The notes beneath the pieces were generated by a model. The model was not told where the DNA came from. It saw only the letters and a program-made list of their open reading frames with translations, and did no database searches. Below are positions 4,629 through 42,642 of a stretch of DNA of 64,000 nucleotides, piece after piece. The position numbers and the translations under genes were made by a program. Source of the DNA: a virus; IMG/VR virus record IMGVR_UViG_3300033144_003548. The stretch is one strand, 5' to 3'. The first letter of the stretch is position 1. Each line of letters begins with the position of its first letter.

Positions 4629-5824
4629 TCACCACTCTTAGCTAATATCCAGTTTTCGCCACCATCCATTGTTGTGTAAATATCAGTTTCTGTCGCTACA
4701 ACCACTTTATTAGAGTTCATTTCGCTTCCTCTTATTTCGACTACTTTAACACCAAAAGCCTTCACCTTATCCCAAGTAGCGAAAGAGTCTGTAGTCTTAT
4801 ATACATCTCCACTATCAGTACCAAACCACGCAGTAGCTTCTTCGGGATAATCCAACAGATTCTTTATATAATCAATATAAACAGCAGTTATTGCCGAATC
4901 AACTTCAAATATCTTATTCCAAAAACCTCCACCGCTCCAAACATACCATAGACCTCCGATTGAAGTTCCAGCAATGGCAGATTTTGCTTTGACATCTGCT
5001 GTAACACAATTGACTACTCCAGAGGCAGGATATGGGGTGCTACCGCTAACAGTTGTGTATGGTTCACCAGGCTCTTCTTGGTCTTCTTCAGGGGGTATCA
5101 CTGAATAAGAAATTTTCAACCAAGGAGTAACATGATTATAATCCTCTGGATGGTTTGGAGGAAGATTGTTGCTCCAATATGTTGTCATAGCACCTTGGAA
5201 TGTGATTTCTAACAACTGATTAGTGTCTGATGGACGATGGTCATAGTCCCAACCAATCGGAGCTTTGTGTGTTAATTGTAACCTAATTCCCAACCAACCC
5301 CAACCACTTGCTATAACAGTTTGAATAGCAGTTGTTATATCTAAACCATCCATCCAGTAAGGTCCATAGGTATTATAATCAGTCTGTATGCCTGCAACAG
5401 TATCAAATGTACCAATCTCTGTCCACCCTGCTGACCCTTCATCATCCTCATCAAGTGTCGCCCAAGGAAAATCGTTTGCATTATACGAACTCTTATAATA
5501 AGCTTTAAGAGACATTTGCGTAGTGTCAGGAACTTGGACATTAAGAATCGACCCCACCATAACGTATAAAGTAGCACTATCAAGAGTCACTCCACTCAAA
5601 GTTGGTACTTGTAACTTAAAATAAGAATGACTATAATAAGACTCGTAGTGGTCTGAAATAACGTCCAAAGGGAATGACCACTCTTTCACGCATTCAAATC
5701 CCGCATAGTAGAATTGGTTCTCTAAGCGAGTTTCATCAACGCTACCATCAGAGTTCTTTGATATTATTCGACCACCTGCAAGATTATTTCTTGGGGGGTC
5801 AATCCACCAATCACTTGTTGCCAT
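4622..5824 (-). CDS. Minor tail protein with C-terminal BNR/Asp-box repeats
   Basis: TTDSFATW and TTMDGGENW Asp-boxes; position after hub. Confidence 0.6.
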   Translation of the reverse strand: MATSDWWIDPPRNNLAGGRIISKNSDGSVDETRLENQFYYAGFECVKEWSFPLDVISDHYESYYSHSYFKLQVPTLSGVTLDSATLYVMVGSILNVQVPDTTQMSLKAYYKSSYNANDFPWATLDEDDEGSAGWTEIGTFDTVAGIQTDYNTYGPYWMDGLDITTAIQTVIASGWGWLGIRLQLTHKAPIGWDYDHRPSDTNQLLEITFQGAMTTYWSNNLPPNHPEDYNHVTPWLKISYSVIPPEEDQEEPGEPYTTVSGSTPYPASGVVNCVTADVKAKSAIAGTSIGGLWYVWSGGGFWNKIFEVDSAITAVYIDYIKNLLDYPEEATAWFGTDSGDVYKTTDSFATWDKVKAFGVKVVEIRGSEMNSNKVVVATETDIYTTMDGGENWILAKSGDW

Positions 5825-5833
5825 TATAAACCT

Positions 5834-7450
5834 CTAATACAAATGCCGTTCTACCCATGTCATACCACCATCATCCGTAGTCCAAACAGAACTACCAGAA
5901 GCGACATAAATTGTCTTCCACTCCATTTGTTGCCCAAATTCTATTGGAATTACTCTCGTTAGAGAATGACTTAATGGTGGGTCTCCCTTATCAGTAACCG
6001 TTAAAGTTACTGGTAAACTAAAAATACCACCAGATACCACATAGGAATTTGCTATGCCAGTCGCATTATCATACCCCGAACAAACCCATAAATAAGATAA
6101 GTCTTCTACAGGACCATTTGGGTCATAAGATGCCGCAGCATTTACGTAAACTTCACCCACAAACGAACCATCAGACAAAACTTCGGTTTCTATCCTATAA
6201 TCAAACAATGCTACAGGAGAGACATTTTCTATTGGTGGTGAACCAGGAACTTCTGCTCCTGCTCCTCCAACAAGGTTCAATATCATAGTCCACTCACCCG
6301 CAGCAAATCTGCTAGAATAATCATATAAAACATAACTAACATTCACCGCAGTTGCATAAGGGTCATATATACCTATCGTCTGTCCAATTCCGATTCTAGG
6401 GTCACCTTCTATAGTAGCAGTAGCAGTATGTCTCAACCTATTCAAATCACTGTAGACTCTCTGAGCTACAGTTGTAACCAATTCCTGCGTATCGAGCAAG
6501 TAAGACCTAATCTCTGTCCGCCTATACCTTGGTGGGTTAGGAACATACTCCGATTCACCTGCAACAGTAGATATTAAATCTCCATAACCAATTACAGTCA
6601 CCCAATTTCTCAAATCATCGTCTGTCCTACTTTCTACACTAATTAAATTACCTGGAGTAACTACTGTAAACTTTTCACTGTCGTAAGTTTCCTTTTGACT
6701 TCTATAGTACACTGATGCCGTTTCACCAGCAATCATCCTAACTTCCTTGCACTGGACTTGACCTACGGGGTCTGCCCAAATACGGTAACCAATCAAGTCA
6801 CAAATTCTGTTAATAGCTTCCATCGCAGATTCATAAACAAATACTGCTACAGCATTATTACCAATGACTATTGCTCCAGAAGCAGGATAATCCACAAAAT
6901 CTAGTTGTTGCCTACTTTCTGGTATCCCACTTTCAGTTAATAATGTACTTATAATCTTTTTTGCCGTTCTGTCAGCAGGTGCTTGCCCACCCATTGGGTT
7001 ACCATATTGGTCTAATTCATCATCAACCAAATCTTTGAAATAGACTTTCCTATTAGTTTGAGTTAAGTAGTTATCTTGGGCAAGCTTCAACATGTCACGA
7101 CATTCTAATCTTTGAAGCTGTGGTGGGTTAGTAAACTCAGCTTGGTCAACAAAGCCAAAGAAGGTTGTCCGAAGGGTTGATGTTTTATTCCAACCTTGTT
7201 CAACTTTGACTCTATCCATTGGTTCAAATCGAACAGGGTCGCCATTTAAATCAAGTGGAGTCTTAATTACCAAAGTACAAGTAGAGCTACCTTGGTCAAA
7301 CCCATAGTTTATATCACAGCTTATAACTTCGGGGTAATAGTTGTGCCCCTCAGCATCAACACCAGGAATATCATCTTCAAGAAACCTAGTGAGAGTTACC
7401 CTAATTAAAGGTGTTTTTACTCTTTTAGCATACTCCTCAGCAATACCCAT
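5834..7450 (-). CDS. Baseplate hub/Tal-like protein with C-terminal PKD-like domain
   Basis: Hub-like N-terminus (FFGFVD...ECRD; GYRIWADP.G); PVALF...ASYDPNG...SYLW...VTLTVTD PKD signature; order TMP-Dit-hub. Confidence 0.7.
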   Translation of the reverse strand: MGIAEEYAKRVKTPLIRVTLTRFLEDDIPGVDAEGHNYYPEVISCDINYGFDQGSSTCTLVIKTPLDLNGDPVRFEPMDRVKVEQGWNKTSTLRTTFFGFVDQAEFTNPPQLQRLECRDMLKLAQDNYLTQTNRKVYFKDLVDDELDQYGNPMGGQAPADRTAKKIISTLLTESGIPESRQQLDFVDYPASGAIVIGNNAVAVFVYESAMEAINRICDLIGYRIWADPVGQVQCKEVRMIAGETASVYYRSQKETYDSEKFTVVTPGNLISVESRTDDDLRNWVTVIGYGDLISTVAGESEYVPNPPRYRRTEIRSYLLDTQELVTTVAQRVYSDLNRLRHTATATIEGDPRIGIGQTIGIYDPYATAVNVSYVLYDYSSRFAAGEWTMILNLVGGAGAEVPGSPPIENVSPVALFDYRIETEVLSDGSFVGEVYVNAAASYDPNGPVEDLSYLWVCSGYDNATGIANSYVVSGGIFSLPVTLTVTDKGDPPLSHSLTRVIPIEFGQQMEWKTIYVASGSSVWTTDDGGMTWVERHLY

Positions 7451-37546: not shown

Positions 37547-38110
37547 CTATTCTATCCTATCCACCAGTCCTATCTCCAGACTCTCGGTACTGCTAAAGAA
37601 TCTAGGAAGATTATCGGTAAGTAATTTTTTCCACCAGGACTCAGTATATTTATTGCACCTGGCTGCAACCATTCTTGAATATTCCCCCTGAAAGAATTTA
37701 AGCAATTTATCCTCAGCTTCACGGTTTCTCATATCACCGACACTGGTCGCTGTAAGACCGTGTGCCATAAGAACGTCCATTCCACCCATAACTCTTTCAT
37801 CACAGGCTTGAAGAATAAAAAATGCCATTGACATAGCCTGACCATAGACCTTACCAATGACGTTAATCCCTTGTCTCTGAGCCTCTCTTATCGCAGTAAT
37901 GCAGCCATTACCATACTCGGCATTACCACCATTAGATGAAATAAGGATGGTAATTGGTTTCTTGCTATCTAGACAAAGAAGCTTCATATCTTCAATAAAG
38001 GTATGTGCTGTGCCACTATCAATTTCACCCCAAATCCCGACTATCCTTGCCTTACGCAGCATAAGTCGTTCTAGTTCAGTTGTTGCCCCAATAACACTTT
38101 CAGATTCCAT
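37547..38110 (-). CDS. clpP: ClpP-like protease subunit
   Basis: GEID, SSNGG, AMSMA (Ser), LMAH (His), GLVD. Confidence 0.85.
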   Translation of the reverse strand: MESESVIGATTELERLMLRKARIVGIWGEIDSGTAHTFIEDMKLLCLDSKKPITILISSNGGNAEYGNGCITAIREAQRQGINVIGKVYGQAMSMAFFILQACDERVMGGMDVLMAHGLTATSVGDMRNREAEDKLLKFFQGEYSRMVAARCNKYTESWWKKLLTDNLPRFFSSTESLEIGLVDRIE

Positions 38111-38972: not shown

Positions 38973-39341
38973 TTATCTATCCAGGTGGTATTTGATATTT
39001 AACATTCCACCATATTTTTGACATTTAGTACATATTCCAGTTTTATTATCTACTCGTATACTACGCCCACATAACTTACACACATCAGGACAAAGAGATT
39101 TAACTAAATCTGGTTTGTCTTTAACAAATTGATCAATGGTGACAAACTCATTTATAAGTCCTCGATGTATCATTCTGTGACAATTCGGGCAAGCATATGT
39201 TAAATTTTTCAATGACCAGTGTGATCTATTACCATCAATGTGATGAACGTCACAAGCAGTTTGTTTCCACCCACAATAAAAACACCCCACTTTAATCAGC
39301 ACTCTTCTTATAAAATTAACGTTCTTTTTTATTCTTAACAT
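38973..39341 (-). CDS. HNH endonuclease
   Basis: CFYCG, VHHIDGN, NL...CPNCH...H. Confidence 0.88.
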   Translation of the reverse strand: MLRIKKNVNFIRRVLIKVGCFYCGWKQTACDVHHIDGNRSHWSLKNLTYACPNCHRMIHRGLINEFVTIDQFVKDKPDLVKSLCPDVCKLCGRSIRVDNKTGICTKCQKYGGMLNIKYHLDR

Positions 39342-39906
39342 CTATAATATCATCCATCTGCTTCTTTAATTCATCAATGTGCTTGTCAGTATAAAGGATA
39401 ATTCGTCCAACCCTCTTTCCCGAATCTAAATCAATTGGCATATCTATATGGTGACCACGAAATTGATGTCTACCATTTTTTACACTTCTCCAATACCTCC
39501 CATTTTCAGTATTGACAAAAGCGTGAATATTAAACTTACGTTTCCTATAATAAATAACGTAATCAACACCTAGAAGATCCGTTTTTTCATCATAAACAAC
39601 TTTCTTGAAGTGCTTCCGTAATAAAAACCCCAAATGGTATTCCCGAACATATGAGAGATAAGCTCTCTTCAATCTTGAAACCACACCTCTGTATTTTAAA
39701 TCTGGAAATTTTTCTTTGAAAGTTCTAATGAATTCTTCCTGTGTTGGGGGAACTTCTTCTTTTATCAGTTCCCTGAAAGTCGTTAGCATAAATGGTAACG
39801 ACCTATTCTCTACATCCTCTCCCCGAAATTTTGGTTTACTAATCTTATATTTGGAGAGAACCTCTTCCAACTCTTCAATTTTCATCCATATTCCCCTTTT
39901 AGGCAC
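39316..39906 (-). CDS. PD-(D/E)xK endonuclease (TaqI-like, putative)
   Basis: PPTQEEF, RL.RAY.S.VRE, D..GVD. Confidence 0.5.
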   Translation of the reverse strand: MPKRGIWMKIEELEEVLSKYKISKPKFRGEDVENRSLPFMLTTFRELIKEEVPPTQEEFIRTFKEKFPDLKYRGVVSRLKRAYLSYVREYHLGFLLRKHFKKVVYDEKTDLLGVDYVIYYRKRKFNIHAFVNTENGRYWRSVKNGRHQFRGHHIDMPIDLDSGKRVGRIILYTDKHIDELKKQMDDIIDVKNKKER

Positions 39907-40427: not shown

Positions 40428-40706
40428 TCATCTTGAGCTTGCCCCATTTAGTACCCACGATATAGGTTTACCAGCATACTTATTTATCTTGCTAGTGTAG
40501 CATACAAACCTACTTGGGCACTTATCACAACTGATGAAATGTGTCGCTCTCATATATTTGCAATTTTCTAGCATTGCAAATTCTTCGCCAGTAATCCTTA
40601 CCTCATCACCATCGCAAACTTCTGATAAGACGCAGGTTTCACACCTCATATTAGAAACCGCTTTGCAGTCTACAACGGGTTCATTGTCAACATATATCTT
40701 TACCAT
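40428..40706 (-). CDS. Cys-rich protein with two CxxCx5C motifs
   Basis: Likely start MVKIYV at 40706, just after the tmRNA 3' end. Confidence 0.6.
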   Translation of the reverse strand: MVKIYVDNEPVVDCKAVSNMRCETCVLSEVCDGDEVRITGEEFAMLENCKYMRATHFISCDKCPSRFVCYTSKINKYAGKPISWVLNGASSR

Positions 40707-40710
40707 TTTG

Positions 40711-41040
40711 TGGAGGTGGGGGAGAGTCGAACTCCCCGTCCAGACCGATCTAATATACACTTTCTACAAGTTTATTTACTTTGCATCTTAGCAACACTAC
40801 TAAGTAACAACTCGTGTTGAGCATCCAGCATTTTTAAGCTGAGACTGGAATTAGCTCTTTTTCCGCCACTGAACGGTCTTCCAAGAGAGTCGTAGCGGGA
40901 GTCTCATCTAGGAAGAGTAATCCTTCTTGCAGGACTACGAATAAATTAGGTTTGCCAGTTATTGGCTTTTGCTATTTATAGTCTTTGCCGACTACTTGCT
41001 TATGTATATCAACATCACCCTGTCGAAGCCACGCACCCCC
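40711..41040 (-). ncRNA. ssrA: Phage-encoded tmRNA
   Basis: 5' GGGGGTG pairs with 3' CACCTCC-A (G3-U70); TTCGAC D-loop analogue; T-arm GGGAG-TTCGACT-CTCCC; helix 2; pk1; TAACT-GGC resume context; CCA not encoded. Confidence 0.93.
40834..40956 (-). CDS. tmRNA tag reading frame (A)GKPNLFVVLQEGLLFLDETPATTLLEDRSVAEKELIPVSA
   Basis: Resume codon GGC 5 nt after the conserved UA; 40 codons to TAA. Confidence 0.75.
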   Translation of the reverse strand, partial: GKPNLFVVLQEGLLFLDETPATTLLEDRSVAEKELIPVSA

Positions 41041-41042
41041 GA

Positions 41043-41829
41043 TTATAAAGAACCAACTTCTTTGGCTGCTTTTATTATCTTATCTGCATCTCGAAGGCTC
41101 TTAACATATTCAAGATAGTGTGATTCGGGAAATGTATTCCAAAGCTCGAATTTCTTTTTAGCTAACCACTCCCTGACTATTTCTATTGCATATGTTGGTT
41201 TCCCTTGATCATCAACTACGTGTTCTGGTTTAACAAAAAAATACCACCTTAAAAACTTAAACATAATTACTCCGCTTTAATTACATTACCTTCTGCGTCA
41301 GCAATATAATTATTCTCTGTAAGTTCCAAACCAAAGTAATCATCATAGATAGGATGATCAATATCTGGAAAGAACTTCATATTATTTGTCGGTATCCCGA
41401 TTGGGTTTTCTAGGAACTCTAATCCCCTAGATACCATCATAGCATTTACTGCTTCTTGAACGTCTTCTAATTCACTCATTATTTTCCCTGCGGTCCGAAA
41501 ATTTTTCTAGCTTATTACACTCTGCGAGACTTTTCCAGAGGTTACGTTCTTAGGCAATTCGTCAGAAATTTAATTAACCCAGGTAAGTCCTCCTCCCGCA
41601 TAATAAACTCTTCTGTAACTGCATCTTCATCACGTAACAGCTTCCAAACCTGTTTTAACCTCCATTTGAGAGGTGCTCCACCACTGGAATTTAGATTGAA
41701 CGTCAGCATTATCAATCTGCCTGTCTTTTCATCACTCTCAGCACACACGTCTAGAGAGTGAAAAGCATCTTTGCAGTCACACGCTAATCTTATCATTTTG
41801 AAGTCAGAGTCATCGAATAGTTTATCCAT
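41043..41829 (-). CDS. Three hypothetical proteins (41043-41264, 41267-41479, 41542-41829)
   Basis: ORF track; RBS before each; third starts MDKLFD. Confidence 0.6.
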
Positions 41830-42613: not shown

Positions 42614-42642
42614 ATTATAACATATTGAGGGTTAATTGTCAA
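42614..42642 (-). promoter_or_regulatory. Sigma-A promoter driving left arm
   Basis: TTGACAATTAACCCTCAATATGTTATAAT. Confidence 0.85.

Follow-up and report, generated by a model that had tools for sequence, protein, structure and literature searches.

A phage tmRNA family with a probable tag reading frame of about 40 codons that runs through a pseudoknot

The peptide tags encoded by tmRNAs are textbook short degrons, and pseudoknots 2 to 4 of the RNA are viewed as a ring lying outside the decoding centre. The 2025 tmRNA database paper gives 10 aa as the commonest tag length and also reports tags of 2 aa (PMC11915505). The 1300 tag strings built into ARAGORN have the same mode of 10 aa, and the longest of them, at 31 aa, comes from Mollicutes; all tags of 26 aa or more in that set are from Mollicutes except two (Coriobacterium glomerans and a Cardinium endosymbiont). 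The long Mollicutes tags are read by Lon and not by ClpXP (Gur and Sauer 2008, as cited in PMC3985003), and they provide a precedent for a long tag paired with a different protease. Phage tmRNAs are also known, from Bxz1-group mycobacteriophages, from Bacillus phage G and, in a TLD-only form, from DS6A (PMC4131195; PMC11915505), and huge phages carry tmRNAs as well (PMC7162821). We re-derived the tags of Bxz1 (ATDTDATVTDAEIEAFFAEEAAALV, 25 aa) and of phage G (AKLNITNNELQVA, 13 aa).

Here we describe a tmRNA in a 64,000-nt stretch of phage DNA, called the window below. It is part of a 138,618-bp IMG/VR virus record that has direct terminal repeats and is rated 100% complete. An earlier note on the window had proposed, from the letters of the sequence, that positions 40,711 to 41,040 encode a phage tmRNA with a 40-residue tag. 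A tmRNA is indeed present: Rfam model RF00023 matches with 103.9 bits (cut-off 47; E 1.6e-39) over model positions 1-374, and it is the sole Rfam family exceeding its cut-off in the window. The coordinates given earlier correspond to G1 and the discriminator A of the RNA, and the strand, which had not been named, is minus. RNA positions are numbered from RNA 1 at window position 41040. The features of the locus, in window coordinates, are these:

42614-42642, minus strand: candidate promoter of the tmRNA unit, TTGACA-17-TATAAT with an extended -10 TG, from a consensus scan alone
40708-41040, minus strand: tmRNA gene, 333 nt as matched by RF00023
41034-41040, minus strand: 5' strand of the acceptor stem, GGGGGUG, with G3 of the G3.U alanine identity pair; pairs with 40712-40718
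40964-40995, minus strand: pseudoknot 1 (PK1; RNA 46-77), stem 1 GUAGUC/GACUAU and stem 2 GGC/GCC, from pairing and covariation
40957-40961, minus strand: frame-setting UAACU (U at -5, A at -4) immediately ahead of the resume codon, from the 20-sequence alignment
40834-40956, minus strand: tag reading frame opening at GGC, 40 sense codons (GKPNLF...IPVSA) and stop codon UAA at 40834-40836, from covariance-model alignment and sequence
40917-40938, minus strand: helix 5 (GUAGUCCU / AGGAUUAC), inside the frame, from RNAalifold; 99.4% of cells paired, with two covarying pairs
40865-40916, minus strand: pseudoknot 2 (pk2; RNA 125-176), wholly in frame, stems UCUUCC/GGAAGA and GCUAC/GUGGC, from alignment A4
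40824-40849, minus strand: tentative hairpin UCCAG...CUGGA with the stop codon in its loop, from sequence and relatives by eye; 61% paired
40776-40819, minus strand: last pseudoknot, past the stop codon, stems CAACAC/GUGUUG and UUACUU/AAGUAA; 81-90% paired, with double changes at every pair
40712-40737, minus strand: T arm, loop UUCGACU on a stem of 6 bp (GGGGAG/CUCCCC), with the acceptor 3' strand CACCUCC next to it downstream, from the alignment
37547-38110, minus strand: ClpP-family protein, 187 aa (Pfam PF00574, 3e-13, full-length; PDB ClpP, E 9e-7)

We searched for relatives by exact-pattern scans with the 3' and 5' tRNA-like ends, which found tmRNAs in IMG/VR, in JGI metagenomes and in one GTDB genome. 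More relatives were recovered with a profile of the conserved neighbour gene (196 aa) as query. A locus search with a single 196-aa protein found nothing, and an alignment was needed. One search pattern, TACTCTTCCTNGATGAGA, was rejected, its matches being mostly chance hits lacking a tmRNA. The resulting family comprises 22 distinct tmRNA sequences, of which 20 align closely (alignment A4) and two are divergent (L064 and L065); the relatives score 90-122 bits against RF00023. All 22 share one genomic spot, and the relatives' TerL proteins are 67-83% identical to that of the window. Gene order in the family loci runs from a 149-aa ORF through the tmRNA, the 196-aa gene and usually the ClpP-like gene to dUTPase, ribonucleotide reductase and TerL. 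A blastn search with the tmRNA against 50,697 GenBank phages returned no match. The family is thus one lineage of large phages, known only from metagenomes. In one member (L012, positions 4645-7272) the large terminase gene matches as two pieces about 970 nt apart, and the same is seen in L034; this suggests an intron, intein or homing-endonuclease insertion.

Both structural elements that the earlier note had called intact are there. The tRNA-like domain has the acceptor stem GGGGGUG/CACCUCC with its G3.U pair, as well as a T loop. The 7 bp of the acceptor stem are paired in 100% of alignment cells, two pairs covary, the G.U pair is invariant in 20 sequences and the discriminator is A. PK1 was also found, with stem 1 99% paired and three of its pairs covarying; its stem 2 covaries between relatives (UGGUG/CACCA, GUGGG/CCCAC, UGGUC/GACCG, GUGU/GCAC). 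The T stem has 6 bp in every family member and covaries (GGGGAG/CUCCCC, AGGGAG/CUCCCU, GGGAAG/CUUCCC, GGGCAG/CUGCCC), and the Rfam alignment needs one inserted base on each strand to accommodate it. Together with the acceptor stem it makes a 13-bp stack. Comparator T stems have 5 bp in four of four cases (one bacterial tmRNA, that of a WWE3 metagenome-assembled genome, Bxz1's and phage G's). The covariance model detects this RNA, whereas ARAGORN at default settings reports no gene in the window, despite finding 28 tRNAs elsewhere in the phage genome, and recovers the tmRNA only at a lowered threshold. The 6-bp T stem probably explains why ARAGORN misses this family by default. The gene ends in CAA in place of CCA, so the discriminator, A40711, is probably the last transcribed base of the mature RNA, and CCA would be attached later. 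This fits the presence of the phage's own CCA-adding-type nucleotidyltransferase (PF01743, 1e-35; a 461-aa frame at genome C1:116451-116819, outside the window).

The tag frame was proposed earlier to open with GGC and to continue for 40 codons, and the covariance-model alignment agrees: it sets the consensus GCa onto this GGC, and the peptide is identical. In the alignment, the model consensus 'AAUAAuU|GCa' falls exactly on 'AAUAACU|GGC'. GGC lies at RNA 85-87 (window 40956-40954) and the stop codon UAA at RNA 205-207, so that the frame occupies 123 of 333 nt (37%), in line with the earlier figure of over one third. In E. coli, the frame is set by UAGUC ahead of the resume codon, and almost all tmRNAs have the A at -4 that is A86 there (PMC2481249; PMC3985003). 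The spacing in E. coli, UAGUC|GCA (U85, A86, G90; PMC2481249), is the same as in the phage motif. T80, A81 and G85, which are U-5, A-4 and G+1 of the GGC frame, are invariant in alignment A4. The resume codon in this frame is GGC in seven of the 20 aligned members, GAC in six, GCA in four and GCU, GUC or GAG in one each; all begin with G.

Frame 0 is open for 35-54 codons in 20 of 20 aligned members, and frames +1 and +2 carry two to five stops each. Reading the two divergent members by eye gives about 35 and about 27 open codons. On a tree of the whole RNA, parsimony counts at least 318 in-frame changes with 15 sequences, or 414 with 20. About 4% of random substitutions create stops, which gives 13-17 expected stop-creating changes; none was seen (P about 1e-6 to 1e-7). 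This expectation is a crude parsimony estimate that ignores transition bias. Transitions alone seldom create stops (0.5%), and with 50% transitions the expectation is still estimated at about 13. When alignment columns were shuffled, every sequence remained stop-free in one of 5000 trials. Insertions and deletions within the frame are multiples of three except in L029, where insertions of +2 and +1 are separated by about 40 nt and the frame is open throughout. Between the two insertions, the conserved nucleotides that spell the family motif KDRFS elsewhere are read as PKTASQ, and the tail EPVKILVTV* is restored. The last tag residue is A, V or I in 20 of 20 aligned members; the window's tag ends in IPVSA, and relatives end in ATV, VTV, STI, VAV, KVA and, in one case, PVAA. 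One member (L026, positions 179-523) is open for 54 codons, and its final 25 residues (…GRTERPHALLGACVKPCGGIEKKGGA) differ from those of the others. It seems to have lost the usual stop codon, hence its extended frame.

The earlier note reasoned that so long a frame leaves little room for pk2-4. This is misleading, because the reading frame itself contains a pk2 with covariation support, and one more pseudoknot follows past the stop codon. RNAalifold run on the family predicts helix 5 plus a second helix in the frame. We wrote out the full structure and counted its pairs on alignment A4. The whole structure is 90% paired, with 46 pairs showing double changes; none of 500 shuffles reached any of the measures, and controls in which the structure was slid along the alignment gave 42-50%. 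Pairing in pk2 reaches 94% in stem 1 and 99% in stem 2, where two pairs show 11 and 9 double changes. The loop of helix 5 contains no stop codon.

This pairing bears directly on how the peptide should be read. The median dN/dS in the tag frame is 0.58. In the hydrophobic core, changes at the three codon positions number 25/4/39, a strong conservation of second positions that U-A and G-C pairing in helix 5 and pk2 explains as well as coding does. A good part of the apparent conservation of the peptide (the FVVLEEGLLFL core and EDRF) arises from RNA pairing in these two elements. We considered the diversity of Leu codons as proof of selection on the peptide and rejected it, since the changes are those that RNA pairing allows: C/U opposite G, A/G opposite U, or four-fold sites. 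Outside the core, codon positions change about equally (27/20/22, 43/39/42 and 30/29/37), which indicates that individual residues are under little selection. Selection clearly maintains the open frame and the point at which it ends, together with a final residue that is small and nonpolar and a C-terminal tail that stays in frame. We infer that the tag is useful for its length and for having a C-terminus that is small and nonpolar.

With the standard one-piece SsrA (RF00023; E. coli ANDENYALAA), the phage RNA shares the G3.U tRNA-like domain, a long helix 2, PK1, a U-A motif 4-5 nt before a resume codon that starts with G, a nonpolar last residue, a stop codon in a hairpin loop and pseudoknots downstream. 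It differs in the length of its frame, which is 40 codons here and 27-54 across the family where the mode is 10, and in a helix 5 without a stop, so that the frame crosses helix 5 and all of pk2 and stops in a later hairpin. It differs also in the 6-bp T stem in place of one of 5 bp, in an unencoded CCA and in belonging to a phage without SmpB. The C-terminal (A)LAA of ClpXP-type ssrA degrons is absent, the family ending instead in VSA, ATV or VAV. The Bxz1-group RNA (Bixzunavirus; PMC4131195) is likewise a complete phage tmRNA with a long, acidic, non-LAA tag, in that case ending in V. Unlike the present family, it has a 25-aa tag and a 5-bp T stem, is detected by ARAGORN at default settings and comes from a 63% GC locus and a Mycobacterium host group; we saw no similarity between its tag sequence and those of the family. 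Mollicutes (M. pneumoniae, Mesoplasma florum) have the longest ARAGORN tags, at 26-31 residues, which start with GK, DK, AK or AN and have a hydrophobic middle. Those tags, however, end in (Y/L)AFA, do not exceed 31 aa and belong to cellular genes, and the phage is not linked to Mollicutes hosts. The TLD-only tmRNA of DS6A is also a phage-borne derivative, but it has no tag template, whereas here the template is enlarged and open. The earlier note had set the tag against typical ones of about 10-15 aa, and at 40 aa it does exceed even the longest ARAGORN entry. Phage tmRNAs as such are already known; it is the family's combination of about 27-54 codons, pk2 in frame and a 6-bp T stem that exceeds the tag collections compared.

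The tmRNA sits flush between two ORFs. The stop codon TAA of the upstream ORF ends 2 nt ahead of G1 (window 41041-41045), and the ATG of the downstream neighbour is at 40706, 4 nt past the tmRNA discriminator, with no space for a ribosome-binding site (window 40704-40711). A 110-aa ORF listed with a GTG start at 40760, overlapping the tmRNA, is probably over-extended. The consensus scan found a perfect sigma-70-type match (12/12) 1.6 kb upstream on the tmRNA strand. No integrase match was found in the phage genome, which is complete, so the tmRNA is not a fragment of the type that integrating elements carry, and the 139-kb phage is lytic-looking. No SmpB gene was found in the phage genome either.

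The 196-aa protein (window 39316-39906, minus strand) adjoins the tmRNA and is 47-85% identical across 87 protein clusters of the phage lineage. It gave zero Pfam or PHROG matches. Its AlphaFold model has a pLDDT of 92, a helical N-terminal part and weak fold matches, mostly to PD-(D/E)xK nucleases (Can1, AvaII, PA-N). We rejected the idea that it is a hidden SmpB or adaptor, given the absence of Pfam and PHROG matches, the weak nuclease-like folds and its presence in relatives that lack the tmRNA. Between this gene and the ClpP-like gene lies a small HNH-endonuclease-like ORF (PHROG, 2e-7; window 38973-39341, minus strand).

Taken together, we consider it likely, on the sequence evidence, that this is a working one-piece tmRNA of the phage, from a phage-only family, with its tag template stretched to about 40 codons. 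Two other placements of the resume codon would shorten the tag. The earlier note had itself raised the doubt that tagging uses the +1 frame, in which translation would resume one base later at GCA and yield a six-residue tag, ANLIYS, ending at a UAG in the 5' arm of helix 5, with the long frame being accidental. GCA (Ala) is the commonest resume codon of bacteria, and the +1 UAG is present in all members, GUAGU being conserved. That doubt was not realised, however, because U-A spacing, G-starting codons and the openness of frame 0 all favour GGC. With GCA the invariant A would fall at -5 and not at -4, the relatives' +1 'resume codons' would be ACA, UCA, CAG, CAA, CUG and AGA, and the +1 peptides end in S or L and are unconserved. 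Nor would it explain why frame 0 stayed open over 414 changes or why the frameshift of L029 is compensated, and we regard a restart at GCA as very improbable. The other placement puts the true resume codon after pk2, at the GCG at RNA 175, which is in frame with GGC; the tag would then be the ten residues AEKELIPVSA, and the module from PK1 to helix 5 a vestige of duplication. ARAGORN proposes this codon at the lowered threshold, and the last ten codons do resemble a normal tag (A-E and a hydrophobic end) that follows a pseudoknot and ends in a hairpin loop, as in the canonical PK1-tag-helix 5 layout. Yet GCG is not preceded by a single-stranded U-A frame-setting motif (the -4 base is C or G), the codon is itself paired within stem 2 of pk2, and the Rfam alignment sets the resume codon at RNA 85. 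Moreover, the 32 codon columns upstream would be neutral, and in these columns 13 stop gains were expected and none was seen. We therefore think it quite improbable that GCG is the true start of the tag.

Other alternatives concern what the RNA or its peptide does. The ClpP-family gene starts 2.6 kb downstream of the tmRNA on the same strand, as the earlier note said, and accompanies the tmRNA in at least 13 related loci, so the long tag might be a functional peptide through which rescued chains reach the ClpP of the phage itself. The rerouting to phage ClpP that the note had suggested is not supported. ClpP by itself does not read tags, and no AAA_2 (ClpX/ClpA-type) unfoldase was found in the phage genome. 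Ser and His of the protein align with ClpP motifs, but among PHROGs it scores best against head maturation proteases; 4-6 kb beyond it come the genes for terminase and portal. A complete 149-kb relative (G002) has the ClpP-like gene and no tmRNA, another (L060) has the tmRNA and no ClpP-like gene in its 10.7-kb record, a 6%-complete fragment, and a third (G004) has neither. The association looks like shared descent and not a functional tie, and we give the handover to phage ClpP little credence. The RNA could instead act mainly as a decoy or inhibitor, soaking up host SmpB or competing with host tmRNA, with the peptide irrelevant. The phage has no SmpB of its own, and there is a parallel in DS6A, which has a TLD-only tmRNA, a similar molecule being known to inhibit tmRNA (PMC4131195, PMC11915505). 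A decoy, however, could do without an open frame, a conserved stop position or insertions and deletions that restore the frame, and conservation here extends to PK1, the frame-setting motif and the resume codon, which makes a pure decoy hard to credit. A less remote, though still unlikely, alternative is that the 40-residue extension is a phage-specific functional peptide and not a degron alone, added to every protein rescued during infection and redirecting its fate. It would then consist of a hydrophobic hairpin, an acidic linker and a nonpolar end, and would give rescued proteins a fate apart from the host ssrA route, either through a different protease or through sequestration that spares host ClpXP from saturation. 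The flood of non-stop messages would come from phage- or defence-induced RNA cleavage, and the tRNA-like end would have adapted in parallel through its 13-bp acceptor/T stack. The note's further idea, that the tag counters anti-phage translation arrest, is purely speculative.

Evidence on the host comes from a few records. A 4.4-kb contig binned with candidate division WWE3 (L039; GenBank PXDX01000110) carries the 149-aa ORF, a long-tag tmRNA, the 196-aa gene and a ClpP-like gene. The WWE3 (CPR) genome bin has its own tmRNA, which is ordinary, differs in sequence and encodes a 16-aa tag, ADYEMAEAPALAGAMA; it is the sole cellular tmRNA linked to the family by binning. The contig is syntenic phage DNA and is either mis-binned or a weak hint to the host. 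Among 400 Patescibacteria genomes, only generic tRNA-like-domain similarity to the tmRNA was found. A protein of another relative is labelled 'Bacilli bacterium', but it lies on a 2.7-kb phage-like contig. The long tag is provisionally a phage trait, as tags of equal length may also occur in the host clade.

If the GGC frame is read as we propose, the tmRNA would be cut from a polycistronic transcript and given its CCA, possibly by the phage's CCA-adding-type enzyme. The invariant G3.U would let host AlaRS attach alanine to it, and SmpB and EF-Tu of the host would then bring it to stalled ribosomes; SmpB is assumed to be the host's because the phage encodes none. The 6-bp T stem is unusual and may affect the binding of EF-Tu or SmpB, and this counts against our reading. 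Translation would resume at GGC (RNA 85), placed by the invariant U(-5) and A(-4), and the ribosome would read 40 codons through helix 5 and the entire pk2, stopping at UAA in the loop of the next hairpin. We know of no studied precedent for a ribosome unwinding pk2 at every rescue, and this too weighs against the long frame. The ribosome would be freed by a premature stop as well, so selection against stops implies that the tag is important as a whole or, at the least, in its C-terminal tail. Judged from its sequence, the tag is most simply interpreted as a non-LAA degron on a long spacer, which would be read by a host AAA+ protease. Lon or FtsH is as plausible a candidate for that protease as ClpXP.

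ARAGORN, the standard finder used in huge-phage surveys (PMC7162821), misses this tmRNA family at its default settings, and phage tmRNAs of the long-tag, 6-bp T-stem kind are probably under-counted. The phage lineage keeps a template about four times the normal length, in which the same nucleotides would serve both as RNA structure and as message. It may therefore serve as a natural system for asking how far the pseudoknot ring is still required after resumption, what tag length contributes, and why phages replace the host tag rather than add more host-type tmRNA.
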